This document shows positions 2,877 through 44,122 of a stretch of 44,122 nucleotides of DNA, one piece after another. The notes beneath the pieces are model-generated. The model saw only the letters and a list, made by a program, of their open reading frames with translations, ran no database searches and was not told the DNA's origin. The stretch is from Klebsiella phage K1-ULIP33. The translations under genes and the position numbers were made by a program. Every line of letters begins with the position of its first letter. The first letter of the stretch is position 1. The stretch lies in the sequence record MK380014.1; one strand, written 5' to 3'.

Positions 2877-3785
2877 ATGACTACCGAAAACATTCTCTTG
2901 TCTGTCCGCGAAGCTGCAACCGCTGAAATCAAAGCACATTTGGAGACAATCGGCGCTTCTTACCTCAAAGTCGGCTCCCTTCTGAATGAATTACGCGGCG
3001 ACTTTGAGAACCAGCGCGAATTTCTCGCCTACGTAGAAGAAGAATTCAGCATTAAGAAAGCACAATGCTACAACCTTATGAACGTAGCACGTTGCTTTGA
3101 CGGTGACGAGCGCTTTAAAGGTGTGGCGATGCGCGTCATGCTGTCCCTGATTCCGTTCGCAGATAAGGCCGGGATTATGGATAAGGCCGCAGAACTTGCC
3201 GCCGAGGGCAAATTAGATACGAAGTCCGTTAACGCGCTTACGGGCAAGCCTGAGAATCCCGCCGCTAAACCTATGCATTCACAAGGCGAACCAGAGAAAA
3301 CCGCTGAGAACGCCGCAGAGAGCGCAGAGCAGGCACCGCAGAGCGTACCAGAAGAATCTAATATAGAATGGGGCGCCGATGAAAACACGGATTCGGCACC
3401 GTGGGACGATGAACCAGCACCGCGCGACGACTCACAGAAAGCGCCAGAGCGTAAAGCGGAGCCGCTGGATAACGCTGCAACCGCAGAGAGCGCGGCGATG
3501 GCTGGCATGTTGGAGCAGATTAAAAGTCTTACCAAACAACTCAAAGCTGCAAATGACCGTATCGCAGAGCTAACCAGCACCCGCGAGAACAAGAAGGCCG
3601 CCGCTCCTATGCTTCCACAATTTAAATCTTCCTGCTTCTATGCTCGCTTAGGTTTAAGCGCGGAGGAAGCAAACAAGAAAACAGCAGTTAACAAGGCCAA
3701 ACGTGAGCTTGTTAAGCTGGGTTATGGCGAGGGCCATGAAGCGTGGGTTCTTATTGCCGAGGCAGTAGCTGAATTAACTAAGTGA
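2877..3785 (+). CDS. hypothetical early protein (302 aa) with acidic/proline-rich disordered centre and C-terminal coiled coil
   Basis: Long + strand ORF with RBS. The last early gene before the RNAP, which is the position of host-takeover genes in T7-like phages. No catalytic motif recognised. Confidence 0.6.
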   Translation: MTTENILLSVREAATAEIKAHLETIGASYLKVGSLLNELRGDFENQREFLAYVEEEFSIKKAQCYNLMNVARCFDGDERFKGVAMRVMLSLIPFADKAGIMDKAAELAAEGKLDTKSVNALTGKPENPAAKPMHSQGEPEKTAENAAESAEQAPQSVPEESNIEWGADENTDSAPWDDEPAPRDDSQKAPERKAEPLDNAATAESAAMAGMLEQIKSLTKQLKAANDRIAELTSTRENKKAAAPMLPQFKSSCFYARLGLSAEEANKKTAVNKAKRELVKLGYGEGHEAWVLIAEAVAELTK

Positions 3786-3859: not shown

Positions 3860-6481
3860 ATGCAAGATCTAATGAACGCTCAGCTTCAACTTGAAGACGA
3901 GATGTTTAACGGTGGTATCAGTCGCTTCGAAGCTGACCAGCAGCGCCAGATTGCAAGCGGTAACGAATCCGATACTGCATGGAACCGACGCCTGCTGTCT
4001 GAATTGATTGCACCTATGGCCGAGGGCATCCAAGTATATAAAGAAGAATACGAAGGTAAGAAAGGCCGCGCCCCGCGTGCTTTAGCCTTCCTGCAATGCG
4101 TAGAAAACGAGGTTGCAGCCTACATCACCATGAAGGTGGTTATGGATATGCTAAACACCGATGTAACCCTGCAAGCTATTTCTATGGCGGTAGCTGACCG
4201 CATTGAAGACCAAGTCCGCTTTAGCAAACTGGAAGGTCACGCCGCTAAATACTTCGAGAAAGTAAAAGCAAGCCTGAAAGCGAGCCGTACTAAATCCTAT
4301 CGTCACGCTCATAATGTATGTGTAGTGGCTGAGAAGTCAGTGGCGGCTAAAGATGGCGAGTTCGACCGCTGGGAGGCATGGCCTAAAGATACCCTCCTGC
4401 AAATCGGGACTACCTTGCTGGAAATCTTGGAGAATAGCGTATTCTTCAAAGGCGAACCTGTATTCATGCGTGCAATGCGTGCGGTAGCTGGTAAAACTGT
4501 CTACTACCTGCAAACCTCTGAAACCGTGGGTGAATGGATCGCAGCGTTTAAAGATCACGTAGCGCAACTATCCCCGGCTTATGCGCCTTGCGTAGTACCG
4601 CCGCGCCCTTGGGTTTCTCCTTTTAATGGAGGCTTCCACACTGAGAAGGTGGCTAGTCGTGTTCGTCTTGTCAAAGGTGACCGCGAACATGTTCGCAAGC
4701 TGACCAAAAAGCAGATGCCTAAAGTTTACAAGGCTGTTAACGCCCTGCAAAACACTCAATGGCAAGTTAACAAAGAGGTGTTAGCGGTGGTTGAAGAAGT
4801 GATCCGCCTCGACCTTGGTTATGGTAAGATTCCACACTTCAAGCCCATCATTGACAAGGAGAACAAGCCAGCGAACCCGGTTCCGGTTGAGTTCCAGCAC
4901 CTTCGCGGGCGTGAGTTAAAGGAGATGCTCACCGCTGACCAGTGGCAAGCCTTCATTAACTGGAAGGGCGAATGTGCGAAGCTGTACACCGCAGAAACTA
5001 AACGCGGCTCCAAGTCTGCCGCCGTGGTTCGTATGGTAGGACAGGCCCGCAAATACAGCGCCTTTGATGCGATCTACTTCGTATATGCACTGGATAGCCG
5101 TTCCCGCGTTTATGCGCAGTCCAGCACGCTCTCACCGCAGTCTAACGATCTAGGCAAGGCATTGCTCCGCTTTACCGAAGGGCAGCCGCTGGATACCGCA
5201 GAGGCGCTTAAATGGTTCCTCATCTCCGGTGCTAACCTGTGGGGCTGGGATAAGAAAACCTTTGATGTGCGTCAAGCTAACGTGTGGTGTGCAGAATTTC
5301 AAGACATGTGCCGGGATATCGCCGCCGACCCGCTCACCTTTACACAGTGGGCTAAAGCGGACGAGCCTTACGAATTTCTCGCATGGTGCTTTGAATATGC
5401 CCGCTATCTGGATGCGCTGGAAGACGGCACCCGCGATGAGTTCCGCACTCACTTACCAGTACACCAAGATGGCTCATGCTCTGGCATCCAGCACTATAGC
5501 GCTATGCTGAAAGATGAGCGCGGCGCTACCGCTGTTAACCTGAAACCGGGCGACGCTCCGCAAGACATTTACGGCGCGGTTGCGCAGGTGGTTATTGCGA
5601 AGAATGCCCTGTACATGGACGCCGACGAAGGGCTGACCTTCGAATCTGGTAGCCTGAAACTGTCCGGCGCTGACCTCCGAGCGATGGCTAGTGCATGGGA
5701 TATGGTAGGTATCACCCGCTCACTGACCAAGAAGCCTGTTATGACCCTGCCGTATGGCTCCACCCGCTTAACCTGCCGCGAGTCTGTGATTGACTACATT
5801 GTTGATCTGGAAGAGAAAGAAGCGCAGAAAGCAGCAGTAGAAGGGCGGGCATCTAACAAGGTACATCCGTTCGAAGAAGGGCAGACACTGGAACCAGCGA
5901 TGGCATACAACTACATGACCGCCTTGATTTGGCCGTCAATCTCTGAGGTCGTTAAAGCTCCGATTGTTGCGATGAAGATGATTCGCCAGCTTGCACGCTT
6001 CGCAGCTAAACGTAACGAAGGGCTGGAATACCCGCTGCCGACTGGCTTCATCCTGAAACAGAAAATCATGGCAACCGAAATGCTCCGCGTGCGTACCTGC
6101 CTGATGGGCGATATCAAGATGAGCCTGCAAGTGGAGACTGACATTGTAGACGAGACTGCAATGATGGGCGCGGCGGCACCTAACTTCGTACACGGTCACG
6201 ATGCGAGCCACCTGATTCTCACCGTGTGCGATCTGGTAGATAAGGGCATCAAATCTATCGCCGTGATTCACGACTCCTTCGGGACTCATGCAGGCCGTAC
6301 CTTAGACCTCCGAAACTCCCTGAAAGGGCAGATGGTAGAAATGTACGAATACACTAACGCACTGGCGAGCCTGCTGGAAATACACGAAGAACGCTGGAAG
6401 GTTGACACTGGCATCAAAGTACCAGAGCAAGGCACCTTCGACGTCCGGGAAATCTTAGAGTCTGACTATTGCTTCGCTTAA
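3860..6481 (+). CDS. single-subunit DNA-dependent RNA polymerase (T7/SP6 family)
   Basis: 873-aa protein with GGAG RBS. Conserved palm motifs of T7-type RNAP are present (..[12 protein letters not shown].., ..HDSFGT..). This size matches SP6 RNAP as I recall it, and the cognate SP6 promoters occur throughout the genome. Confidence 0.97.
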
Positions 6482-6573: not shown

Positions 6574-6594
6574 ATTTACGAGACACTATAGGAC
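6574..6594 (+). promoter_or_regulatory. variant SP6-type promoter (ATTTACGAGACACTATAGGAC)
   Basis: Matches the consensus except at a few positions. Preceded by a copy of the 16-bp palindrome. Confidence 0.45.
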
Positions 6595-6709
6595 TACCCG
6601 TCGGAGACGGAAAGTAATAGGTAGTTAAAGGTAATAAAGGAAAGATAGGTAATATAGGTAATCCTAGGTTACACTTCCTTTATTCTCCCTCCTTATTACA
6701 TGAAGTCCT

Positions 6710-6725
6710 GTCCAACATGTTGGAC
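6710..6725. repeat. palindromic element GTCCAACATGTTGGAC (copy 3, perfectly symmetric)
   Basis: 5 nt upstream of the promoter at 6731. Confidence 0.85.
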
Positions 6726-6730
6726 AAACT

Positions 6731-6751
6731 ATTTAGGTGACACTATTGAAC
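6731..6751 (+). promoter_or_regulatory. SP6-type promoter variant (ATTTAGGTGACACTATTGAAC)
   Basis: Perfect -17 to -1 region, with a T instead of A at +1/+2. Immediately preceded by a copy of the palindrome. Upstream of the gp1.1-like and primase genes. Confidence 0.55.
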
Positions 6752-8897: not shown

Positions 8898-8914
8898 TGT
8901 TCTTATCAGGGCTT

Positions 8915-8930
8915 ATCCAACATGTTGGAC
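8915..8930. repeat. palindromic element ATCCAACATGTTGGAC (copy 5, one mismatch)
   Basis: 18 nt after the primase stop. Extended flanking complementarity (GCTTATCC/GGACAGGC). Confidence 0.8.
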
Positions 8931-8967
8931 AGGCTCTTATTAAGCACATTAACTATAGGAGATTGTT

Positions 8968-9841: not shown

Positions 9842-9854
9842 TAAGTCATGGGTT

Positions 9855-9870
9855 GTCCAACATGTTGGAC
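9855..9870. repeat. palindromic element GTCCAACATGTTGGAC (copy 6)
   Basis: 14 nt after the stop at 9841. Extended to GGTTGTCCAACATGTTGGACAGCC, which can form an 11-bp stem with one G.U. Confidence 0.85.
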
Positions 9871-9902
9871 AGCCTATCATCATATTAATTGGAGGTGACT
9901 CA

Positions 9903-12548
9903 ATGAAAGATATTGATTGGATTAAAGAAGCCCAAGGTCGTATCCTTGTGATGGATGCAGAAGCTAAAGGCCTACTTGATGCCATCCGATACGGACACCG
10001 CGAGGACGTGCATATCAGGATTAAAGAAGCCCAAGGTCGTATCCTTGTGATGGATGCAGAAGCTAAAGGCCTACTTGATGCCATCCGATACGGACACCGC
10101 GAGGACGTGCATATCATTTGCTGCATGGATTTGCTGACCACCGAAGAGTTCCTGTTCTTCGACCCATATGAGATGCGTGACCAGGAAGCGCGGGAGCGGC
10201 TCAAGGAGTGGGAAGGGTTTCAGGACGGCGACCTTGTGGATGGCGTGAACTTCCTCAAACACTGCGAGGCTATCGTATCACAGAACTTTCTAGGGTATGA
10301 CGGCTTGCTCTTTGAGAAGGCATTCCCGTCTGTGTGGCGGGGCTTTAACTACACAGAGAAGCGCGGGAAAGGCCGTCTGCGGGCCGATCTCTGCCCGGTA
10401 AGGGTTATGGATACCCTCGTTATGTCGCGCCTCCTGAACCCGGATAGGCGGCTTCCTCCGCAGGCTTACGCTAAAGGTATGGGTAACGTGGCCCCTCACT
10501 CAATCGAGGCGCACGGCATCCGCATCGGGCGCTATAAGCCGGAGAACGAAGACTGGTCTAAGCTGACAGACCACATGGTTCACCGTGTCCGCGAGGACGT
10601 GGCGATAGGTCGTGACCTGTTCCTTTGGCTACATAACGGCGAGTGGAGGGAGCACAAGGCGCGTGGCGTTAACCCTCGCACTGGCCTTGGCATCGAGACG
10701 GCATTCCACATGGAGTCGATCGTTGCGCTGGAAATGACCCGGCAGGCAGAGCGTGGCTTCCGGCTGGATATCGATAAGGCGCTGGCTCGATGCCAAGAAC
10801 TCGACGAGAAGATCGACGAGACAGTAGCAGCATTCCGCCCGCACATGCCTATGCGTATCAAGTCAAAGCCATTCAAGCCACAAGAGAAGGAGGAACAAAT
10901 CGATGCAGCAAACAGCTACGCGGCGTTACATTCGTTGGGTGCGAGGCTCTCAGAAGACGCCTTCTTACATGTGGAACGTAGGGGTGATAGGAAGACTGTA
11001 TGGGCCGTCACCACTAAGTCTGGGGATTGGTCTGCTACTGTCAAGAAAGATTTTCCTCACATTAGAGGAAATATTAATGACACGCCAAGCCTCAAGCACA
11101 TTGGCCCTTACTCGCCAGTCACCTTTGAAGAGATCCCACTAGGGAACCGTGACACGGTGAAGCAGGTACTCTATGACTTCGGGTGGCGAGGTGTAGAGTT
11201 CAACGATGCAGAGCAGGCATGCATCGACGAGAATGGTGTGCCGCCTAAACCTTGGAGTGGTAAGATCAATGAGAAGTCGATTGCTGTTTGGAAGGAAAGA
11301 GCCGCACGTGAAGGTAAAGCAGTCCCCGATTGGTGCTTGGGTATCGCTGCATGGTACATACTCGTATCCCGTCGCGGTCAGATCCTCAACCGTGGTGACG
11401 TTGAAGCCTTCAATCAGAAGGGAGCGTGGCCCTCGCAGGCTGGTGTACGAAAGTGTCGCGGCCTTATACCTGTAGCATTCAACAAGGAGTTAGGTATCAA
11501 TGCGCAAACGTACTACGAAACCTACGGGTGCTGGCCTACGTCTGATAAGGACGACGGTGAGTGGCGTGTTCCTGCCGTTGCTATCAGTATTGGAACTTCT
11601 ACCTTCCGTATGCGGCATCGTAATGTTGTTAATATCCCCGCTCGTGGCTTATACCCTCTTCGTGATTTATTCATTGCAGGGAAAGGTAAGCTAATCCTTG
11701 GCTGTGATGGTGCAGGTCTGGAATTGCGTGTATTATCGCACTTCATGAACGACCCTGAATACCAAGAGATCGTACTGCACGGTGACATTCACACCCATAA
11801 CCAGCTTAAAGCTGGCCTGCCGAAGCGTGACATGGCGAAGACTTTCATCTACGCCTTCCTGTATGGCTCCGGTATTTCCAACCTAGCGGCAGTTTGTGGC
11901 GTCACTGAGGAGGAGATGAAGGAAGTGGTGGCTCGTTTTGAGATTGAGCTACCCTCACTGGCTCGCCTCCGGGAGAATGTTATCGCTGCCGGAAACAAGT
12001 TCGGCTACCTGCAAGCGCCGGATGGTCATTGGGGCCGCATCCGTATGGCGAATGGTGAACTCAAAGAACACACCATGCTGAACGTGTTGCTCCAAATGAC
12101 AGGCTCCTTGTGTATGAAGTACGCACTGGTGAAAGCCTTTGCAGTCATGCGCAGAGAGGGAGTGGCGCTGGATGATATGGGAAATCCGTGTGGTGTGGCT
12201 AACGTCCACGATGAAATCCAGATGGAGGTGCCAGAAGATGAGGTCTTGTATCTTGACTATACAATACCTTTCACCTTAGAGGGGTTTGAAACTGAGAAGG
12301 CAGCCATTAAAGCCGCATTTGATCCAGAAGAAAAGCGGGTGCATACCGACGTTGATGGCCGTATGTGGTCTGCCGCGAATCTTATCAAGGTAGATGCCGA
12401 GGCAGGTGTTATTCATTGCCAACGTAAATACCATCGTGCTGGTCAAATCATAGCTGAGTCTATGACTTGGGCAGGTAAGTATTTAAACATGCGTTGCCCT
12501 ATGTCCGGGGAATTTAAGATCGGAAGTTCATGGGCTGAAACGCACTAA
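9903..12548 (+). CDS. DNA polymerase, family A (T7 gp5-like), carrying an internal 33-aa tandem duplication
   Basis: The Exo I motif ILVMDAEA is present twice. Pol motifs are present: DTLVMSRLL (A), KTFIYAFLYGSG (B), VHDEIQME (C). 881 aa. Confidence 0.95.
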   Translation: MKDIDWIKEAQGRILVMDAEAKGLLDAIRYGHREDVHIRIKEAQGRILVMDAEAKGLLDAIRYGHREDVHIICCMDLLTTEEFLFFDPYEMRDQEARERLKEWEGFQDGDLVDGVNFLKHCEAIVSQNFLGYDGLLFEKAFPSVWRGFNYTEKRGKGRLRADLCPVRVMDTLVMSRLLNPDRRLPPQAYAKGMGNVAPHSIEAHGIRIGRYKPENEDWSKLTDHMVHRVREDVAIGRDLFLWLHNGEWREHKARGVNPRTGLGIETAFHMESIVALEMTRQAERGFRLDIDKALARCQELDEKIDETVAAFRPHMPMRIKSKPFKPQEKEEQIDAANSYAALHSLGARLSEDAFLHVERRGDRKTVWAVTTKSGDWSATVKKDFPHIRGNINDTPSLKHIGPYSPVTFEEIPLGNRDTVKQVLYDFGWRGVEFNDAEQACIDENGVPPKPWSGKINEKSIAVWKERAAREGKAVPDWCLGIAAWYILVSRRGQILNRGDVEAFNQKGAWPSQAGVRKCRGLIPVAFNKELGINAQTYYETYGCWPTSDKDDGEWRVPAVAISIGTSTFRMRHRNVVNIPARGLYPLRDLFIAGKGKLILGCDGAGLELRVLSHFMNDPEYQEIVLHGDIHTHNQLKAGLPKRDMAKTFIYAFLYGSGISNLAAVCGVTEEEMKEVVARFEIELPSLARLRENVIAAGNKFGYLQAPDGHWGRIRMANGELKEHTMLNVLLQMTGSLCMKYALVKAFAVMRREGVALDDMGNPCGVANVHDEIQMEVPEDEVLYLDYTIPFTLEGFETEKAAIKAAFDPEEKRVHTDVDGRMWSAANLIKVDAEAGVIHCQRKYHRAGQIIAESMTWAGKYLNMRCPMSGEFKIGSSWAETH
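9921..10118. repeat. perfect 99-bp tandem direct duplication (2 units, 97/99 identical) inside the DNA polymerase gene
   Basis: Unit 1 (9921..10019) and unit 2 (10020..10118) differ only in their last 2 nt. Encodes IKEAQGRILVMDAEAKGLLDAIRYGHREDVHI twice. Confidence 0.9.
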
Positions 12549-12563
12549 CATGGGAAAAGGAAA

Positions 12564-13022
12564 ATGCAAGAGTGGGTTCGCATTACAAGCTATCCTAACT
12601 ATGCTGTGTCGAACGAAGGTGAGGTTAAGAATATTAATACAGGGTGTGTATTGCGCCCACTTACACTAACCAAAGGGTACTTAGGTGTTAGGCTATATCA
12701 CGAAGGTAACGGCAAGACGCTTAAGATTCATAGGCTTGTCGCTCTTGCCTTTCTTTCTAACCCTGATAACCTACCTCAGGTAAACCATATAGATGGTGAC
12801 AAGAGTAACAATGATGTTACCAACCTTGAGTGGTGCAGCAATGAATACAATATGCGGCACGCTGCTGACAATGACTTACTTAACAAAGAGACACAGTTTA
12901 AGCAGAAGTATGATCCGTCTGAGTTCCGTAAGTGCAAAGAAGAAGGTATGACCATCTCCGCTATTGCTCGTAAGTTTGGATGTAAGCGGGATACTGTATA
13001 CCGACTTTTAAGACTACGTTGA
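12564..13022 (+). CDS. HNH homing endonuclease (free-standing)
   Basis: Motif HRLVALAFLSNPDNLPQVNHIDGDKSNNDVTNLEW..N is typical of phage HNH/AP2-type endonucleases. Inserted directly after the DNA polymerase gene. Confidence 0.8.
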   Translation: MQEWVRITSYPNYAVSNEGEVKNINTGCVLRPLTLTKGYLGVRLYHEGNGKTLKIHRLVALAFLSNPDNLPQVNHIDGDKSNNDVTNLEWCSNEYNMRHAADNDLLNKETQFKQKYDPSEFRKCKEEGMTISAIARKFGCKRDTVYRLLRLR

Positions 13023-13042
13023 TTTAGGTGACACTATAGAAG
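13022..13042 (+). promoter_or_regulatory. SP6 promoter (ATTTAGGTGACACTATAGAAG)
   Basis: Exact consensus, overlapping the stop of the HNH gene. Confidence 0.85.
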
Positions 13043-13107
13043 GTAGCCTAGGTAATCTAGGTCTTATAGGTAGTATAGATAAATAAGCTAAATATAGGAG
13101 ATTAAAT

Positions 13108-13452
13108 ATGTCAATGGTAACTACTCTGGTAGCACTGTCTCAATTCTTCCGTAACCTGTCCACTCGTATCCGTAACAAGGCAATCAATGCAATCAAAGAC
13201 CGCATCGCTGTGGTTGAAGACCAGCAGGTTGCTGTTGAGGAGAAGCGTAGCGAGAACATGATTGCTACCCACAACTCTTACTACGCAGCTAAGGCGAAGC
13301 TGGATGAAGAGTATCAGGCCAAGCTGGCTAAGATGGAGGCCGAACTGGCTGCGACCAAGCGCACCATCGCAATGGTTGCACAGGGTGCATCTAACGAATT
13401 GAAGCGTGAGCTTGTCATGCTCAGCATGGAACTGGATAACCTGACCAAGTGA
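13108..13452 (+). CDS. hypothetical protein (114 aa), coiled-coil rich
   Basis: ORF with RBS TAGGAGATTAAATATG. Follows the promoter and a TAGGTA-rich leader. Confidence 0.6.
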   Translation: MSMVTTLVALSQFFRNLSTRIRNKAINAIKDRIAVVEDQQVAVEEKRSENMIATHNSYYAAKAKLDEEYQAKLAKMEAELAATKRTIAMVAQGASNELKRELVMLSMELDNLTK

Positions 13453-13536
13453 GAGGCTACCTGTATCCCGGCCACCCGGATTGGAGTACCTATATTGCAC
13501 TAGGTTATGGTTGGAACATCAAGACCAAGCACTGGT

Positions 13537-13557
13537 AATTAGGTGACACTATAGAAC
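13537..13557 (+). promoter_or_regulatory. SP6 promoter (AATTAGGTGACACTATAGAAC) followed by a conserved leader stem-loop
   Basis: Followed by AAGGGCA-gcaataggt-TGCCCTT and then GATTGTATAGTG. The module is duplicated at 18269. Confidence 0.8.
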
Positions 13558-13610
13558 AAAGGGCAGCAATAGGTTGCCCTTGATTGTATAGTGTAACAAA
13601 AGGAGGAATA

Positions 13611-14078
13611 ATGGAAATCTGGAAAGTGATATCAGAGTTTCCAGATTATGCCGTAAGTTCTCATGGTAGAGTTAAATCTCTGAGATATAATCGCATAATG
13701 TCTGGAGGCTTAGATGCTGATGGGTACGTCGTTGTAACGCTGAGATCTAACAAGAAACCAAAGACGCAGAAGGTGCATAGGCTGGTTGCAACTGCGTTTA
13801 TATCAAACCCTCTTTGTCTTCCAGAGGTTAACCACAAGAGTGAAATTAAGACGGACAACTTTGTCCAAAACTTGGAGTGGTGTACTAGCCAATACAACAC
13901 TGAGTATTCTCAAGCTAAAACTTATGAAATACTCACACCAAAAGGTGAGCGCATTACCGTAACAAATCTACGTAAGTTTTGCCGTGACAATAATTTATGT
14001 CAAAGTAATATGAACAAGGTATTTAACGGTAAAGCCTCACACCACAAAGGTTATCGTAAATATAATGGAGGTATTTAA
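13611..14078 (+). CDS. HNH homing endonuclease (second copy, free-standing)
   Basis: MEIWKVISEFPDYAVSSHGRVKSL...HRLVATAFISNPLCLPEVNHK..NLEW parallels the first HNH gene (..YPNYAVSNEGEVKNI..HRLVALAFLSNP..VNH). Has its own promoter. AAGGAGGA RBS. The track ORF starts 27 nt earlier, and I prefer the ATG at 13611. Confidence 0.8.
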   Translation: MEIWKVISEFPDYAVSSHGRVKSLRYNRIMSGGLDADGYVVVTLRSNKKPKTQKVHRLVATAFISNPLCLPEVNHKSEIKTDNFVQNLEWCTSQYNTEYSQAKTYEILTPKGERITVTNLRKFCRDNNLCQSNMNKVFNGKASHHKGYRKYNGGI

Positions 14079-14881
14079 TGGCACGTAACTTTGACTTTGG
14101 CGCAGAAATTACTCAAGCTACTGGCGGTGTATTTAAGAACCCGGAAGTAGGTGATCATGAGGCTGTGATCTCTGGCATCATTCACGTTGGCTCTTTCCAA
14201 GATATCTTCAAGAAAGGCAACACCACCGAAGTTAAGAAGCCTGCCAACTTTGTGCTGGTCAAGGTTATCCTGATGGGTGACGACGACAAGAATGATGATG
14301 CCTCTCGCATGGAGCAGTGGATGGCTGTGCCGCTCAAGTCTGGTGACAAGGCTATACTGACTAAGTTCCTGAATGCGGTTGACCCGAAAGAACTGCTGGG
14401 CGGCTTCAATGATTTCATCGGCGAGTGCATGACTGTCAGCATGGTTGGCGACGAGAAGGGTGGCAAGAATGAAGACGGCACCTTCAAGTACGTTAACTGG
14501 AAAGGTTTCGGCGGTATGCCGGATAAACTCAAGAAGTTGGTATTAGCTCAGGTTGAAGAAGAAGGCCTGTCCATGACTGGTCATATCACCTTCGACAAGC
14601 TGACTCGTGAGATTATCGACTCTATCCCGGCGCATCTGGTTCGCCAGTACCTGCTGAACGAGACTCCGCGCGGCAAGAACTTGTCCGTTGCTGGTTCCCA
14701 CGTTGAAGCAATCATTGCAGAGGCACGCGCTGCCGATGCAGACTGGAAGAAGGCCAAGAAGAAAGACGGTGACGCAACTCCAGAAGACCGCCAGTCTCTG
14801 GACACTGGTGCTGCTGTACCGCAGGAAGTTCCGGCGCAGGACGTCCCGGCTCCGGCTATGGATGAAGACGCAGAATATTAA
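14078..14881 (+). CDS. hypothetical protein with an acidic C-terminal tail ending in an aromatic residue (candidate ssDNA-binding protein)
   Basis: 267 aa with a TAATG overlap start and GGAGG RBS. The C-terminus PAMDEDAEY resembles the acidic aromatic-terminated tails of T7 gp2.5-type SSBs. Position and size fit, but no direct sequence match is recognised. Confidence 0.5.
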   Translation: MARNFDFGAEITQATGGVFKNPEVGDHEAVISGIIHVGSFQDIFKKGNTTEVKKPANFVLVKVILMGDDDKNDDASRMEQWMAVPLKSGDKAILTKFLNAVDPKELLGGFNDFIGECMTVSMVGDEKGGKNEDGTFKYVNWKGFGGMPDKLKKLVLAQVEEEGLSMTGHITFDKLTREIIDSIPAHLVRQYLLNETPRGKNLSVAGSHVEAIIAEARAADADWKKAKKKDGDATPEDRQSLDTGAAVPQEVPAQDVPAPAMDEDAEY

Positions 14882-17274: not shown

Positions 17275-18274
17275 GCTACGCTCCCTGTACAAAGACTCCG
17301 AGGTGCTGAGTGCAATTGAGCAGGCTACCGACGAGCACGGAAATGTTAACTACAATGAAACGGCACGCATCTTATCTGCGCATCCAGTGGGTAAGAAGAT
17401 CACGCGCCAACTGGCACGCTACTGGCATGGTCAGTTCAAGACGAAGAAGAAGAACGGCGATGCATATCAGTCACTCCTTCCAGAGAATAAGCGTATCAAA
17501 GAAGCACGCAAGCTGCGCACTCCTGATCGCTATGAAGATCTGGCTGTTGCACCAATGCCTGAGTCGGCTCATCGAAGCATACTGGTAATCCCTGATACCC
17601 ATGCTCCGTATGAGCACCCGGATACGCTGGAGTTTCTGGCAGCAGTGGCTGCGCGGTTCCGCCCGGATACCGTTGTCCACCTCGGAGATGAAGCGGACAA
17701 GCACGCTATGTCTTTCCACGACTCCGATCCCAACCTTGATTCCGCTGGCATGGAATTGGAGAAGGCACGTGTCTTCATGGCGAAGCTGCACGCAATGTTC
17801 CCGGTGATGCGCCTGTGTCACTCGAACCACGGCTCTATGCACTTCCGCAAGGCGCACTCGCACGGCATCCCTGTGCAATACCTCCGCACCTACCGCGAAG
17901 TGTTCTTCCCGCAAGGTGGCGGCGAGCGCTGGGAGTGGCAGCATACGCACGTCCTCGAACTGCCGAACGGTGAGCAGGTTGCCTTCAAGCACCAGCCTGC
18001 CGGGGCCGTGCTGGGTGACGCTGCACATGAGCGCATGAACTTGGTGTGTGGTCACTTGCATGGCAAAATGTCTATCGAGTATGCCCGGAATACGCATGAG
18101 CAGTATTGGGCCGCACAGGGCGGTTGTCTGGTAGATGAAGATTCTCGCGCCTTCTCTTATGGCAAGGAGTCCAAATACAAGCCAGCGCTTGGTTGCCTTG
18201 TGATTCTCGAAGGCGTACCGCAGATCATCCCGATGCAGACCAATAGCGACGGTCGCTGGGTTGGCAAGCTTTAA
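17267..18274 (+). CDS. calcineurin-like metallophosphoesterase
   Basis: Motifs LVIPDTHAPYEHPD, HLGDEADKH and CHSNHGSMH fit the metallophosphatase signature (DxH..GD..GNH). Probable TTG start at 17267, 6 nt after GGAGG. The upstream part of track ORF 17063 overlaps the resolvase gene. Confidence 0.65.
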   Translation: MGKLRSLYKDSEVLSAIEQATDEHGNVNYNETARILSAHPVGKKITRQLARYWHGQFKTKKKNGDAYQSLLPENKRIKEARKLRTPDRYEDLAVAPMPESAHRSILVIPDTHAPYEHPDTLEFLAAVAARFRPDTVVHLGDEADKHAMSFHDSDPNLDSAGMELEKARVFMAKLHAMFPVMRLCHSNHGSMHFRKAHSHGIPVQYLRTYREVFFPQGGGERWEWQHTHVLELPNGEQVAFKHQPAGAVLGDAAHERMNLVCGHLHGKMSIEYARNTHEQYWAAQGGCLVDEDSRAFSYGKESKYKPALGCLVILEGVPQIIPMQTNSDGRWVGKL

Positions 18275-18289
18275 GTGACACTATAGAAC
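18269..18289 (+). promoter_or_regulatory. SP6 promoter variant (CTTTAAGTGACACTATAGAAC) followed by a conserved leader stem-loop
   Basis: Followed by AAGGGCA-ggtgatgct-TGCCCTT and then GATTGTATATTG. Homologous to the 13537 module. Confidence 0.7.
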
Positions 18290-18341
18290 AAAGGGCAGGT
18301 GATGCTTGCCCTTGATTGTATATTGTTAACAGGAGGTAAAT

Positions 18342-18917
18342 ATGATCATTGTACTGAATGCCCCTCCGGGTGCAGGAAAAGATACCATTGCCAAGAGAAT
18401 GGCAGAAGCAAGCCCGGCATTTCGTCTGGCCTCTATGAAGGAGCCGATGTGGGATATTGCTAAGGCTATGCTCGGAACTAAGTACGATGAATTTGTTCGT
18501 CTGTACAATGACAGGGAGACCAAAGAGAAGGCCTTCGAGTTCTTAGGTGGACTCTCTCCACGTGGTTTCTTTATCTGGATATCCGAGAAGGTATGCAAGC
18601 CTCTATTCGGCGAGCGCTTCTTCGGAGAGCGAATGCTGTCACGTGTACAGGAATTGAAACCATACGAGGTTGTCTTGTCTGATGGAGGCTTCCCTTCTGA
18701 ACTCCTTCCAGCACTTGAAGCTGGCGAGACTATCATGTTGGTGCGTCTGCACCGAGATGGTTTCACTTTTGAAGGAGACAGCCGTGGCTATATATATGCT
18801 GAGGATTTGCCCGGTGAAGAGTTTTGGACTATCGATGTGGATCTTGAAGAAGGTGGGATTGACAAGGCAGTAACTCAAATCATCTCAGCCTATGAAGTAT
18901 TACTAGAGGTGTACTAA
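18342..18917 (+). CDS. P-loop nucleotide/deoxynucleotide kinase-like protein
   Basis: N-terminal Walker A motif MIIVLNAPPGAGKDT, like adenylate/dNMP kinases. 191 aa. Confidence 0.6.
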   Translation: MIIVLNAPPGAGKDTIAKRMAEASPAFRLASMKEPMWDIAKAMLGTKYDEFVRLYNDRETKEKAFEFLGGLSPRGFFIWISEKVCKPLFGERFFGERMLSRVQELKPYEVVLSDGGFPSELLPALEAGETIMLVRLHRDGFTFEGDSRGYIYAEDLPGEEFWTIDVDLEEGGIDKAVTQIISAYEVLLEVY

Positions 18918-31484: not shown

Positions 31485-31501
31485 TGTCATACTCAAGGGT
31501 T

Positions 31502-31517
31502 GTCCAACGTGTTGGAC
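31502..31517. repeat. palindromic element GTCCAACGTGTTGGAC (copy 9)
   Basis: 18 nt after the stop at 31484. Extended to GGTTGTCCAACGTGTTGGACAGCC. Confidence 0.85.
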
Positions 31518-31552
31518 AGCCTTTTATGAATGGCATTAACTAAGGAGGTAAC

Positions 31553-36567: not shown

Positions 36568-36859
36568 CCGACATGCGGCGAGTGAAGATGATGTAGGTAT
36601 TCTTCACAACGCCATTACTAAGATGTTCAACAAGAAGGCACAGGCAATCCTCGATGCTATCGAGGACGACCCTGATGCGGCCATCGGTCTTGTCTCAGGC
36701 AAGGATGTAGGTGCGATGTGTAAATGGGTATTGGATAACGGCATCACTGCCACACCTGCCGCGCAGCAAGAAGAGAGCAAGCTGTCCAAGCGACTGGCTG
36801 CACTCAAGGCTGCATCGCAAGGCAAGGTCATTAACTTTACTGACGTTAAGGAGGCTTAA
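36554..36859 (+). CDS. terminase small subunit (gp18-like), start uncertain
   Basis: Gene directly upstream of the large terminase. I prefer the GTG at 36554, 4 nt after GGAGGGAG. The track ORF begins at 36509 on a TTG inside the holin gene. Confidence 0.5.
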   Translation: MAVNNRHAASEDDVGILHNAITKMFNKKAQAILDAIEDDPDAAIGLVSGKDVGAMCKWVLDNGITATPAAQQEESKLSKRLAALKAASQGKVINFTDVKEA

Positions 36860-38025
36860 TGGCAAAGGCAAGGGAGTCACAAGCGGAAGCCCTTGCCCGT
36901 TGGGAGATGCTGCGAGAGTTACAGCAGACGTTCTCCTATACGGTGCAGGGCTTACTGTCGTTCGCTCAGGTGGTAATCAATACGTTAATCACTGGCAATC
37001 CAGACCTGAACCGAGTACAAGCCGATATCCTCAAGTTCCTGTTTGCAGGAAACAAGTATCGGATGGTAGAAGCGCAGCGTGGTCAGGCTAAGACCACTAT
37101 CGCTGCGATCTATGCGGTGTTCCGTATCATTCACGAACCGCACAAACGTATCATGATAGTATCACAGACAGCCAAGCGTGCCGAGGAAATCGCTGGTTGG
37201 GTGATTAAGATCTTCCGTGGGTTGGACTTCCTTGAGTTCATGCTCCCCGATATCTACGCGGGTGACAAGGCTTCAATCAAAGGCTTCGAGATTCACTACA
37301 CCTTACGTGGAAGTGACAAGTCTCCGTCTGTCGCTTGCTACTCTATCGAAGCAGGTATGCAGGGTGCGCGTGCAGATATCATTCTGGCTGACGACGTTGA
37401 GTCGTTGCAGAATAGCCGTACCGCAGCAGGCCGTGCATTGCTGGAGGACTTGACCAAAGAGTTCGAATCCATCAACCAATTTGGCGATATCATCTACCTA
37501 GGGACGCCGCAGAGCGTTAACTCCATCTACAACAACCTCCCGGCGCGTGGCTACCAGATTCGTATCTGGCCCGGTCGCTACCCTACGCTGGAGCAAGAGG
37601 CTTGCTATGGTGACTTCTTGGCACCGATGATCCGCCAAGACATGACTGACAATCCGTGTCTTCGCTCAGGCTATGGCATTGACGGCACTCAGGGCGCACC
37701 AACCTGCCCGGAGATGTACGACGATGAGAAGCTGATTGAGAAGGAGATCTCGCAAGGTACGGCTAAATTCCAGCTACAGTTCATGCTGAACACTCGCCTG
37801 ATGGATGCAGACCGCTACCCGTTACGCCTGAACAACCTGATCATGATGAGCTTTGGCACTGATGTAGTCCCTGAGATGCCGACTTGGAGCAATGACTCGA
37901 TGAATCTTATCGGCGATGCACCGCGCTTCGGCAACAAGCCCACGGACTACCTATACCGCCCTGTGGCCCGCCCGTATGAGTGGCGACCGATTCAGCGTCG
38001 AGTCATGTACATTGACCCCGCTGGT
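36859..38025 (+). CDS. terminase large subunit, exon 1 (ATPase domain)
   Basis: Walker A-like motif ..EAQRGQAKTT.. and ..ILADDVESL... The ORF continues into the intron and stops at 38076. The predicted 5' splice site lies after GCT GGT (38025), within the conserved ..IDPAG.. nuclease-domain motif. Confidence 0.8.
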
Positions 38026-38780
38026 AAACACCTCTGCCAGCGTAAAACCCTCTTAATTCGGTGGAACTCTCACTGAGACAATACCGAGCGAAGCCTGTTG
38101 CAATGGCAGGAACGTGTAGAGACTAACTGTAAGGCCAAGCGGTCTGAAACAGAGGGAGGCGCAAGCCTAAGATGTAGTCCGACCTACTAGGTGACTAGTA
38201 GAAGTTAAAGTAGCGAATTAACGTAACAATTGAAGGAAGTTAAATATGACAGAGCATAAAGTTTATCATATTCGTGTTGTTGGTGAAACCGACGTAATGC
38301 AAGGTTATGTTGGTGTAACCTCCGATGTTAAGAAACGTATGAGAGAGCACAAATGTGCAGGCCGTTTATGTGATGGTCGTGAGTACGTCATCTTATTCAC
38401 TGGTAACAAAGAAGAGTGCTATGCACTGGAAGAAAAGCTACGCCCACATGACAACATTGGTTGGAATAAGGGTAGAGGTGGTTATCGCAAAGCAGGTAAC
38501 ATCGAGAAAGGTGAACGCATAAGTATTGCCACTGAAATCAAGAAATGGCAGCACTTGTCTGTCGATACTGAGTTCAAGAAAGGCATGACACCTTACAACA
38601 AAGGTACTGGCAAAGGTTACATATTCACTTCTCCAGAGGGTGAAGAGTTCCTTGTAACTTGCATTACTGACTTCTGTAAAGAGCACAACCTGACTCCTCA
38701 GAATATGCGCAAGGTGGCTCGCGGACTACGCAAACAGCATAAAGGTTGGCTCGCACGTCACGTTCAAACCGGGAGGTAAG
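38026..38780 (+). mobile_element. group I intron-like intervening sequence carrying a GIY-YIG homing endonuclease ORF
   Basis: The exon end GCUGGU can pair with the internal guide GCCAGC (38036..38041) to form P1, with a U.G at the splice site. R-like GUGUAGAGACUAA (about 38114) and S-like AAGAUGUAGUCC (about 38170) supply the P7 GACUA/UAGUC pairing. The intron ends in G (38780) right after the ORF stop. The exon reading frames are compatible. Confidence 0.7.
38246..38779 (+). CDS. GIY-YIG homing endonuclease (intron-encoded)
   Basis: N-terminus KVYHIRVVGETDVMQGYVGVTSDVKKRMREH fits the GIY-YIG module (xIY..YIG..R..E). 177 aa. RBS GAAGGAAGTTAAATATG. Confidence 0.8.
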   Translation: MTEHKVYHIRVVGETDVMQGYVGVTSDVKKRMREHKCAGRLCDGREYVILFTGNKEECYALEEKLRPHDNIGWNKGRGGYRKAGNIEKGERISIATEIKKWQHLSVDTEFKKGMTPYNKGTGKGYIFTSPEGEEFLVTCITDFCKEHNLTPQNMRKVARGLRKQHKGWLARHVQTGR

Positions 38781-39503
38781 AACGGTGACGAAACTGGCGT
38801 GGCTATCGTCTTCTTGCTGGGGACGTTCATCTACGTATATAAGTGCTTCGGTGTGCCGGGTGGATACTCGGATAGTGCTCTCAGTCGCATTGTGCGCGAG
38901 GCAAAGGCCGCAGAGGTGAAAGAGGTCTTCATAGAGAAGAACTTCGGTCACGGTGCGTTTGAGGCGGTAATTAAGCCATACTTCGAACGAGAGTGGCCTG
39001 CCGAGTTGAAAGAGGATTATGCGCACGGACAGAAGGAAGTGCGTATCATCGAGACGCTGGAGCCTCTATTCTCTGCGCACCGCATCATCTTCAACGCGGA
39101 GATGATTAAGCAGGACATAGACAGCATACAGCACTACCCGCTCGAAATACGGATGAGCTACAGCCTGTTCGGTCAAATCTCGAACATTACTCTGGAGAAA
39201 GGTTGCCTACGGCATGACGACCGCTTAGACGCCCTGTACGGCGCTATACGGCAATTGACTTCTCAGATAGACTATGACGAGGTTAACCGGATAAATCGGC
39301 TCAGAGCGCAGGAGATGCGCGATTATCTGGACATGATGCACGACCCTCGGAGACGCCGGGAGTTCTTTACCGGGCAAGATCATGGGTATCGCCCTCGGAC
39401 GAACACCAGTGATGCCAGAATCCAGTCCGTGTGGGGCAAATCGGTGCGCCCTAAAACTCGTTCTCGAAATACACTTTCTTCAAGAATTTCAAGGACTTGG
39501 TAA
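38781..39503 (+). CDS. terminase large subunit, exon 2 (nuclease domain)
   Basis: The frame is open from 38781 (NGDETGVAIVFLLGT...), upstream of the first ATG at 38799. It continues the terminase nuclease motif begun in exon 1 (IDPAG | NGDETG). Combined product is about 629 aa. Confidence 0.75.
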   Translation, partial: NGDETGVAIVFLLGTFIYVYKCFGVPGGYSDSALSRIVREAKAAEVKEVFIEKNFGHGAFEAVIKPYFEREWPAELKEDYAHGQKEVRIIETLEPLFSAHRIIFNAEMIKQDIDSIQHYPLEIRMSYSLFGQISNITLEKGCLRHDDRLDALYGAIRQLTSQIDYDEVNRINRLRAQEMRDYLDMMHDPRRRREFFTGQDHGYRPRTNTSDARIQSVWGKSVRPKTRSRNTLSSRISRTW

Positions 39504-39522: not shown

Positions 39523-39607
39523 GAGGGCCCAGGAAGAAAAGGAAATAATAGGTAGTTATAGGTATACCTAGGTAGTCCCAGGGAGTGCTAGGTAATAGTA
39601 GATTATA

Positions 39608-39655
39608 TAGGTAGTGATAGTATGGGTGTACTCCTGTACACCCTATTCCTACCTA
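39608..39655 (+). other. long imperfect hairpin in the leader (core GGGTGTAC-tcct-GTACACCC)
   Basis: Perfect 8-bp core stem with outer TAGGTAG/CTACCTA arms. Lies between the promoter at 39502 and the gene at 39687. Confidence 0.6.
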
Positions 39656-43959: not shown

Positions 43960-44122
43960 CTCGCCCGTCGCCCGTCCGGGGTTGTCCCCATAGGGTGCCT
44001 GTGTCATTTCTAGGGCCGGAGGGCGGGCCTAGGCCGTTTCTTAGTGAGGGCCAAAGGTTCGCCTAGGCCAGCCGGAATGAGGGCCGCAGGAGGCCGCTTG
44101 CGCGGTGTGAGGGCGTGGGCTA
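43960..44122. repeat. right direct terminal repeat (DTR)
   Basis: Identical to 1..163. It could be longer, since the window ends inside or at the repeat. Confidence 0.9.

Follow-up and report, generated by a model that had tools for sequence, protein, structure and literature searches.

The window analyzed here, the whole 44,122-nucleotide (nt) sequence of Klebsiella phage K1-ULIP33 (MK380014.1), is the complete linear genome of an SP6-like podophage, with an exact 163-base-pair (bp) direct terminal repeat (1-163 / 43960-44122) and, in the layout of its open reading frames (ORFs), a single coding strand for all genes. Two modules on that strand, at 13537-13613 and 18269-18344, each consist of an SP6-type promoter, an AAGGGCA...TGCCCTT hairpin, the box GATTGTATAgTGT, and a ribosome-binding site. 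A preliminary description of the same DNA had reported one such unit shared by the two loci, and pairwise alignment, a repeat search, and a covariance model all bear this out. The repeat search returned a direct repeat of 56 nt at 86% identity (13539-13594 / 18271-18326); in the pairwise alignment, identity extends from the promoter to GATTGTATA, the loop excepted, being continuous from the promoter to GAACAAAGGGCAG and resuming at TTGCCCTTGATTGTATA; and the covariance model of the module found exactly two full copies in the window (E ~1e-8). The features of the two modules are as follows.

13537..13558, plus strand: module 1 promoter (-17 to +5), with +1 at G13554; exact match to TAGGTGACACTATAGAA
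13546..13553, plus strand: 5' strand of the module 1 lower stem, promoter core -8 to -1 (ACACTATA), pairing with 13587-13594 in both the minimum-free-energy and the centroid fold
13554..13558, plus strand: 5' side of the module 1 internal loop, GAACA, and at the same time the initially transcribed sequence +1 to +5
13559..13581, plus strand: module 1 upper stem-loop AAGGGCAGC-AAUAG-GUUGCCCUU, 9 bp with a 5-nt loop
13582..13586, plus strand: 3' side of the module 1 internal loop, GAUUG, the RNase III cleavage region predicted by analogy with T7 (..CCUUUAU^GAUUG, the caret marking the cut here and below)
13587..13594, plus strand: 3' strand of the module 1 lower stem, TATAGTGT, reverse complement of the promoter core
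13600..13606, plus strand: Shine-Dalgarno sequence AAGGAGG, resident for the gp18 homolog; relatives lacking the HNH gene read ..AAAGGAGGAATAAATTAATGGCTCGT.. here
18269..18290, plus strand: module 2 promoter (-17 to +5), with +1 at G18286
18278..18285, plus strand: 5' strand of the module 2 lower stem, promoter core ACACTATA, pairing with 18319-18326 with one mismatch
18291..18313, plus strand: module 2 upper stem-loop AAGGGCAGGU-GAU-GCUUGCCCUU, 10 bp with a 3-nt loop
18314..18326, plus strand: module 2 GAUUG (18314-18318) and 3' strand of the lower stem, TATATTGT (18319-18326), placed by alignment and fold
18342..18917, plus strand: deoxynucleoside monophosphate (dNMP) kinase gene served by module 2; PHROG 139, E 3.5e-41, annotated as dNMP or nucleotide kinase in relatives

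The kinase match agrees with the P-loop kinase that had been read behind the second module. On the coding strand before these genes, the 17-nt promoter cores of modules 1 and 2 have no mismatch and one mismatch, respectively, to the window's own repeated consensus ATTTAGGTGACACTATAGAA; both are predicted promoters, and the repeat search places the two in a 10-copy family. Across the window, 14 sites match the SP6-type promoter TAGGTGACACTATAGAA with up to 3 mismatches, where 0.12 would be expected. Some details of the preliminary description need adjustment. Its contrast between identical stems and different loops holds for the loops, except that the second is 9 nt long (ggtgatgct) and not 8, and both stems run on into these loops through different pairs (G:U and C:G in one, G:U, G:C, and U:G in the other), leaving loops of 5 and 3 nt. 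The AATATG given as the end of both modules is present in module 2, while module 1 reads GGAGGAATAATG. Moreover, identical stems with different loops within one window are by themselves a weak sign of conserved structure; real covariation is seen only between genomes.

A second helix, absent from the preliminary description, involves the promoter itself. The box TATAGTGT that follows GATTG is the reverse complement of promoter core positions -8 to -1 (ACACTATA), and the 5' strand of this lower stem is present only in RNA that reads through from upstream promoters. Such read-through RNA is predicted to fold into a lower stem of 8 bp, a G/G mismatch, an AA:UU step, a 2x2 loop, and the upper stem, which amounts to ~19 bp over ~22 positions (8 bp, 2 bp, and 9 to 10 bp, with a 5x5 internal-loop region), at -26.5 kcal/mol (z = -7.05) for module 1 and -20.2 kcal/mol (z = -5.08) for module 2. 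This is the interrupted-hairpin layout expected of a T7-type RNase III site, in which ~20 bp, or two helical turns, are divided by an internal loop between two stems. RNAalifold returned the same fold as its consensus without the fold being supplied. Read-through RNA must exist, because the upstream phosphoesterase gene has its stop codon (18272-18274) within the module 2 promoter, an arrangement repeated in SP6, K1-5, Pm5460, POP72, and phD2B, and because a simple scan of 12500-13537 found no terminator-like site on the plus strand upstream of module 1. Both modules are also intercistronic on the single coding strand, as expected of processing sites on polycistronic transcripts of a phage polymerase. 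In RNA initiated at the module promoter, by comparison, the upper hairpin would lie at +6 to +28, preceded by 5 unpaired nt (GAACA), if the start is the consensus G.

We asked whether the two stems are maintained among relatives, using 27 distinct short-loop modules with 500 shuffles and slid controls. The 9-bp upper stem is paired in 99.6% of cases and 8 of its 9 pairs show changes on both sides, values reached by none of the 500 shuffles, while slid controls were paired in 32 to 44%. Between the stems, GAACA is invariant in the 27 modules, with its AA pairing with the UU of GAUUG; ATTG is invariant across the family, and the preceding G is nearly so (A in pKV-BS375-3.1). The lower stem, formed by promoter and box, is paired in 87.5% of cases and has three pairs with double changes. 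Its -7 pair is never broken and appears in five forms (CG in 21 modules, GC in 2, GU in 2, UA in 1, and UG in 1), and the covariation score of this helix, 0.128 against 0.043 +/- 0.014, was equaled by 0 of 500 shuffles. The cores and boxes of the promoter types concerned are as follows.

SP6-type: core ACACTATA, box TATAGTGT
POP72: core GGACTATA, box TATAGTCA or TATAGTTA
phD2B: core CTACTATA, box TATTGTAA or TATAGTGA
pKV-BS375-3.1: core CGAGTATA, box TATACCCG, with three compensatory double changes

With the promoter supplying one strand of this helix, each shift in polymerase specificity within Molineuxvirinae (ACACTATA, GGACTATA, CTACTATA, CGAGTATA) would have had to be answered by compensatory changes in the box.

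Such tracking might also be expected if the box worked in DNA, either as part of a promoter in inverted orientation, bound by the phage RNA polymerase, or as an inverted repeat of the cruciform or origin-like kind. On the minus strand the box has GTTACACTATACAATC where the promoter has GTGACACTATAGAAC, the box follows changes of the promoter core in other genera, and the primary origin of T7 is promoter-associated. We nevertheless regard a DNA-level element as very improbable. Where promoter and box differ, pairing is kept through wobbles that count as mismatches in DNA identity, for example at -7 in POP72 (G with U) and at locus 2 of phD2B (U with G), and at -2 in the K1-5-like L016 (U with G); the inverted copy carries a C at +1 and is without the -9 to -12 specificity bases; and G:U pairs of the upper stem correspond to A-C mismatches on the other strand. 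G:U wobbles occur commonly in the two stems, the minus strand gives poor scores, and because these pairs become mismatches on the opposite strand, the constraint appears to act on plus-strand RNA and not on DNA. An antisense promoter at the box was considered separately and rejected, given its C at +1, the wrong bases at -9 to -12, and wobble pairs that favor RNA.

The modules resemble T7 RNase III sites in sequence as well as in fold. For this comparison we used ten T7 cleavage coordinates, reportedly those given by Dunn and Studier in 1983. At 8 of the 10 sites the pattern is CUCAAGG(U/G)C..loop..G(G/C)CCUU(U)A(U/C)^GAU(U/A), with a lower stem flanking it. T7 R0.3 reads CAAGGGTATCGCAAGGTGCCCTT-TAT^GATA (AAGGGTA..TGCCCTT), to be compared with AAGGGCAGCAATAGGTTGCCCTT-GATTG in the window; R1.1 reads ..GTGGCCTT-TAT^GATTGACC and thus has the same GAUUG after the cut as the modules; and the R1 hairpin GGTCATCTGCGGGTGGCC is one base from the hairpin of the phD2B and POP72 modules, GGTCATCTTCGGGTGGCC. 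When 18-mers from module hairpins were searched against 25 kb of T7 on both strands with up to 2 mismatches, every match fell on the R1 hairpin (T7 3113-3135). Set beside the T7 signature CUCAAGGUC..GGCCUUUAU^GAUU, the modules have AAGG(G/U)C..G(C/G)CCUU followed by GAUUG, without the UAU spacer and the CUC motif.

T7 also offers composites of promoter and RNase III site (phi13/R13, phi3.8/R3.8, phi6.5/R6.5, phi4.7/R4.7, and phi1.1A/R1.1). In R13, one strand of the stem is supplied by the phi13 promoter; in R6.5, the loop contains phi6.5; and the phi3.8 and phi1.1A starts lie at or just before their RNase III sites. For R3.8 and R6.5, transcription has been reported to start upstream of the cleavage site (PMC6938266). 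Like the modules, these composites are interrupted hairpins of about two turns in intercistronic positions on polycistronic RNA made by a phage polymerase, with promoter sequence as part of the hairpin, a transcription start just upstream of the processing site, and an upper stem running from AAGG(G/U)C to G(C/G)CCUU, with GAUU after it. They differ in that the promoter is the 3' strand in R13 and lies in the loop in R6.5, whereas in the modules the lower stem has the promoter core as its 5' strand, and in that T7 has the UAU spacer and ACUC, whereas the modules have GAUUG directly after the stem and GAACA.

Considering fold, covariation, and likeness to T7 together, we judge it probable, at roughly 60%, that each module combines a promoter and, fused to it, an RNase III processing site of the T7 type, and that the modules are resident composite signals for transcription and putative RNase III processing in SP6-like (Molineuxvirinae) phages. 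The preliminary description had suggested a regulatory role for the leader stem-loop, RNase III entry among the options; the compensatory substitutions and the T7 likeness support and sharpen that suggestion, with cleavage itself predicted by analogy.

Several observations weigh against this interpretation. The T7 cleavage coordinates are corroborated only by their landing on the conserved UAU^GAU motif, since the T7 GenBank and RefSeq records, as retrieved, list no RNase III features. A covariance model built from seven T7 sites gives the modules ~9 bits (E ~8, not significant), and the reciprocal search of T7 with the model of the SP6-family module finds only the R1.1 upper stem, likewise at a nonsignificant E of ~8. 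The T7 UAU spacer between upper stem and GAU is missing, and GAACA stands where T7 has ACUC. In the lower stem, -8 is unpaired in 12 of the 27 modules and -4 or -5 in 6 of them, and its covariation comes from only ~3 independent promoter lineages. Cleavage data for any SP6-like phage were not found in the searchable literature, and a full-text search, outside of which lay the primary SP6 and K1-5 genome papers, returned nothing linking SP6-like phages to RNase III; the genome papers of KBNP1315 and UAB_Phi78 mention only promoters and terminators.

Finally, one GenBank record labels the hairpin a rho-independent terminator. In Proteus phage Pm5460 (vB_PmiP_Pm5460, NC_028916), the orthologous locus 2 hairpin, directly after the dNMP kinase promoter, is annotated at 18200..18241 as a rho-independent terminator that overlaps the promoter. 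On such a view, the hairpin and its U-rich tail would be an intrinsic terminator or attenuator that halts RNA synthesis arriving from upstream, or weakens the output of the module's own promoter, and so makes the downstream genes depend on the local promoter, and the locus 2 hairpin of the window does look terminator-like in a simple, lenient scan. However, the locus 1 hairpin fails the same scan, and the tail is the invariant GAUUGUAUAG rather than the run of U characteristic of an intrinsic terminator. Loop inserts of 35 to 95 nt, found in the orthologs of SP6, K1-5, and pKV-BS375-3.1, would be unfavorable for termination, complementarity to the promoter core would be needless and yet covaries, and stopping transcription 30 nt after a promoter would defeat that promoter. 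The Pm5460 annotation was based on folding alone, and the family-wide pairing of the box, the invariant GAUUG, and the loop insertions do not fit a terminator. We therefore consider termination or attenuation by this hairpin quite unlikely.

If the modules are instead promoters joined to processing sites, the following course of events can be proposed. In read-through RNA, promoter core positions -8 to -1 (ACACUAUA) would pair with the downstream box UAUAGUGU, closing a lower stem under the GAACA / GAUUG loop and the 9- to 10-bp upper stem-loop and so producing a structure of the size of a host RNase III substrate. Cleavage, presumably within the GAUUG on the 3' side of the internal loop or close to it, would leave a 3' hairpin on the upstream cistrons and release a downstream message that starts ~20 nt before its Shine-Dalgarno sequence. 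RNA initiated at the promoter would be without the 5' strand of the lower stem and would form the short upper hairpin only; it would probably go uncut and may gain 5' protection. Promoter core and box together might then discriminate between transcripts by origin, with read-through RNA cut by RNase III and promoter-initiated RNA escaping with its 5' hairpin, a proposal that we advance tentatively and with less confidence than the presence of a processing site as such.

It is also possible to see in the hairpin nothing but a stabilizer at the 5' end of promoter-initiated mRNA, of the type found in T7 phi10 and ompA leaders, with the complementarity of the box being incidental. The upper hairpin, at +6 to +28 of the primary transcript, is strongly conserved by compensation; early hairpins also follow other promoters of the window (23367, before the capsid gene, with GGGAGGaaucugCCUCCC; 2596, 9556, and 41200); and T7 phi10 and phi9 show the same habit. 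The phi10, phi9, and ompA hairpins are like those of the modules in being stable and close to the transcript's 5' end, and in T7 the pairing reaches promoter positions -5 to -1. phi10 is not known to be linked to RNase III. However, the hairpin of the modules starts at +6 and not at +1, unlike those of phi10 and ompA, and comes with the invariant GAUUG and a box complementary to the promoter. Bouvet and Belasco are said to have found in 1992 that protection by a 5' stem-loop needs at most ~2 to 4 unpaired nt before it, a limit that would be exceeded by the 5 that precede the hairpin here if the start is the consensus G. Stabilization alone would also leave the invariant GAUUG, the promoter-tracking box with its wobbles, and the identity with T7 RNase III hairpins unexplained. 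As the sole function of the hairpin it is thus unlikely, although stabilization is compatible with processing.

A different element of the window follows the T7 layout more closely. The top match of the T7-site covariance model, at 31490-31534 (E 0.014), has the full arrangement UGUCAU-ACUC-AAGGGUUGUCCAAC..GGACAGCCUUU-UAUGA-AUGGCA, with UGUCAU:AUGGCA as its lower stem. It overlaps one member of a five-copy family of palindromic hairpins centered on GTCCAACATGTTGGAC (447-481, 6701-6735, 8906-8940, 9846-9880, and 31493-31527), of which the copy at 9846 has a similar layout. From their sequence, the GTCCAACATGTTGGAC hairpins are probably canonical RNase III sites (or terminators) of the phage, and this phage group evidently does carry predicted sites of the T7 type.

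No new principle is involved in the proposed composites: RNase III sites, and combinations of them with promoters, are already found in T7. If they are real, the T7 model of mRNA processing would extend to a second, long-diverged subfamily, and the evolution of promoters and of RNA-processing sites would be mechanically coupled; a promoter that doubles as half of an RNA helix and coevolves with its partner makes a clean, testable case. There are also practical consequences. In vitro transcription relies heavily on SP6, and SP6-like phages, among them K1-5, K1E, and numerous Klebsiella and Salmonella phages considered for therapy, are routinely sequenced and annotated with promoters and "terminators" only, so that these hairpins now appear as terminators or are left unannotated. 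The SP6 genome description by Dobbins et al. from 2004 reportedly lists promoters and seven rho-independent terminators. Annotations of promoter-proximal hairpins would have to be corrected, and likewise those of the GTCCAACATGTTGGAC palindrome family.

The closest relative of the window is Klebsiella phage Kpp-61, with 98.4% identity (a difference of 1.6% over a 6.5-kb region); it is classified in Autographiviridae, with close relatives placed in Molineuxvirinae. Beyond this group, the module is present at both loci, before the gp18 homolog and before the dNMP kinase gene, in SP6, K1-5, phD2B, and POP72, the last with a third copy, and at one or both loci as seen in BP12B, UAB_Phi78, and CrRp3. 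Pm5460 has it at the kinase locus only, and pKV-BS375-3.1 has it at the kinase locus and in another copy. Several IMG/VR contigs carry it as well; in the broad IMG/VR pattern scan chance matches predominated, and a folding-energy filter was applied. It is missing at the corresponding loci in Erwinia phiEa100, Pectobacterium PP99, and Pseudomonas Achelous, and the family seems to be limited to part of Molineuxvirinae. Rfam gave no matches across the whole window at gathering thresholds. The architecture is constant, comprising promoter, GAACA(A/G), a variable stem-loop, (U/C)(G/A)AUUG, and box, while loop length ranges from 3 to ~95 nt.

The two copies in the window are best read as paralogs, each at a fixed locus. 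The stems of SP6 and K1-5 differ by locus (TAGGACGTG.. or TAGGTCGG.. at locus 1 vs AGGGTCAG.. or AGGGCTAG.. at locus 2), and locus 1 modules with other stems are found in SP6, K1-5, BP12B, UAB_Phi78, POP72, and phD2B. In the window lineage, the locus 1 stem AGGGCAGC..GTTGCCCT belongs to the locus 2 type, suggesting that at some past time the two copies underwent an exchange by way of their identical flanks. Because sisters without the HNH gene share this locus 2-type stem, the putative exchange is older than the HNH insertion. Remodeling between fixed flanks is also seen in pKV-BS375-3.1 (L154), a more distant Klebsiella phage, in which modules at 407-473 and 6174-6314 agree in promoter (GGCGAGTATAG) and in box plus flank (CAATTGTATACCCGTAAATTAAT) but have wholly different stem-loops of 19 nt and ~95 nt. 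Since flanks but not stem-loops are shared, the stem-loop appears to have been swapped or remodeled between them.

Module 1 is followed by an HNH gene, and the features at its insertion site are as follows.

13611..14078, plus strand: free-standing HNH ORF, 155 amino acids, whose stop codon overlaps the gp18 ATG (TAATG)
14067..14071, plus strand: new Shine-Dalgarno sequence GGAGG at the 3' end of the HNH insert
14078..14881, plus strand: gp18 homolog, PHROG 862 (function unassigned by PHROG), the gene originally served by module 1

That a free-standing HNH endonuclease lies behind the first module, as previously described, is supported by Pfam NUMOD4 (1.6e-10), by HNH_3 and I-HmuI-like matches below their cut-offs, and by PHROG 59 (4e-38). 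The ORF is missing from Kpp-61 and all other close relatives, and no homolog above 60% identity was found among GenBank phages. An IMG/VR contig (L012), however, has a 75%-identical HNH gene at exactly the same site, and its insert has the same kind of 3' end (GGAGGTAATTAATGGCT). In the window the insertion falls exactly between two signals of the gp18 homolog, its resident Shine-Dalgarno sequence and its start codon; the uninterrupted target in Kpp-61 reads ..GGAGGAATAAATTAATGGCTCGTAATTTTGATTTTGG.., and the HNH ORF starts four bases after the resident GGAGG and ends ..GGAGGTATTTAATGG. To the 3' side, 14078-14131 has 13 substitutions relative to Kpp-61 (L001 1619-1672) in the first 53 nt after the junction, beginning with synonymous ones (GCA CGT AAC TTT GAC vs GCT CGT AAT TTT GAT), and this divergent 5' tract of gp18 looks like a co-conversion or target-site immunity tract. 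Sporadic presence at a fixed site, NUMOD4 and HNH domains, and a flanking divergent tract together characterize a free-standing HNH homing endonuclease, and ORF 13611-14078 is predicted to be one.

The preliminary description had offered two ideas about this association, one being that the HNH cassette was inserted along with a copy of a resident expression module (promoter, hairpin, and leader). In favor of such an origin, the two modules of the window are more alike than the two of SP6, and two leader substitutions relative to Kpp-61, 12 and 20 nt before the junction, could mark a short 5' co-conversion tract. Yet the comparison with HNH-less relatives that had been proposed as a check finds the module at both loci there. 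Locus 1 promoter and hairpin are identical in Kpp-61, IME184, and K44PH129C1, which have no HNH gene; in these phages the box differs by one base (TATCGTGT for TATAGTGT) and the module is directly followed by ..AAAGGAGGAATAAATTAATGGCTCGTAAT.., where the gp18 homolog starts. The insertion point lies 3' of the Shine-Dalgarno sequence, and the HNH gene of L012 sits behind a module of its own, with promoter GTTGCACTATAG and stem TAGGTCGA..TTCGGCCTA, both unlike those of the window. These comparisons refute the arrival of the module with the cassette, to which we assign next to no probability. The second idea, translational control of a toxic endonuclease, is unsupported because the module predates the HNH gene.

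Instead, the HNH gene was inserted later, between the gp18 Shine-Dalgarno sequence and start codon, borrowing promoter, hairpin, and ribosome-binding site and supplying the gp18 homolog with a replacement for the last. The module 1 promoter, found at the gp18 locus also in HNH-less Kpp-61, IME184, K44PH129C1, and SP6, is by this distribution the resident promoter of the gp18 homolog, now predicted to drive the HNH gene as well. Similarly, the resident AAGGAGG is, from its position, now the predicted Shine-Dalgarno sequence of the HNH ORF, and the insert-borne GGAGG is predicted to restore translation initiation for the gp18 homolog. Free-standing HNH endonucleases of T-odd and T-even phages, associated with intronless homing and co-conversion of flanking markers, are alike in being small NUMOD4/HNH ORFs between conserved genes, patchily distributed among near-identical genomes, using the expression signals of host genes and flanked by short clusters of substitutions. 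The window example differs from them in its unusually exact site between Shine-Dalgarno sequence and start, its replacement Shine-Dalgarno sequence, and its TAATG overlap. It would thus be a case of a homing endonuclease that slots in between ribosome-binding site and start codon, takes over resident signals, and repairs the disruption.

A first free-standing HNH gene (NUMOD4, HNH_3, and a C-terminal helix-turn-helix) lies at 12564-13022, directly 3' of the DNA polymerase gene. It is common to Kpp-61 (ORF18), while other close relatives align only from 13019 on in the region search. The DNA polymerase ORF (9903..12548) contains, close to its 5' end, a perfect 99-bp tandem duplication of 33 codons in frame (9919-10017 and 10018-10116), which could be real or an assembly artifact. 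Over 36859-38076, 38246-38779, and 38799-39503, the gene for the terminase large subunit is apparently split, its 3' part (38799-39503) matching the RNase H-like domain of T7 terminase (1.4e-26), and an ORF between the terminase parts has a weak GIY-YIG match (20.9 bits against a Pfam cut-off of 22.6). The "intronic GIY-YIG gene" of the preliminary description fits the split terminase and the weak match, but Rfam detected no group I intron at its gathering threshold.

Most other phage promoters of the window (starts 2596, 6591, 9556, 23367, and 41200) have a hairpin within ~30 nt downstream, and these hairpins lie outside the GATTG module family. That of the capsid promoter (23367), GGGAGGaaucugCCUCCC at +4, is reminiscent of the T7 phi10 leader. 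Arrays of (A/T)AGGTA(A/G)T with a period of 9 to 10 nt occur at 6618-6661, 13040-13073, and 39549-39614, in untranslated leaders directly 3' of phage promoters with +1 at 6591, 13039, and 39519. The two-unit pattern has 8 matches against 0.68 expected. Relatives have the arrays in the leaders of the equivalent promoters: SP6 and Pm5460 share the first and the third, and K1-5 shares the second. A role as Shine-Dalgarno-like AGGU motifs or as protein-binding iterons is conceivable, and ATAGGT is also present in the loop of module 1.

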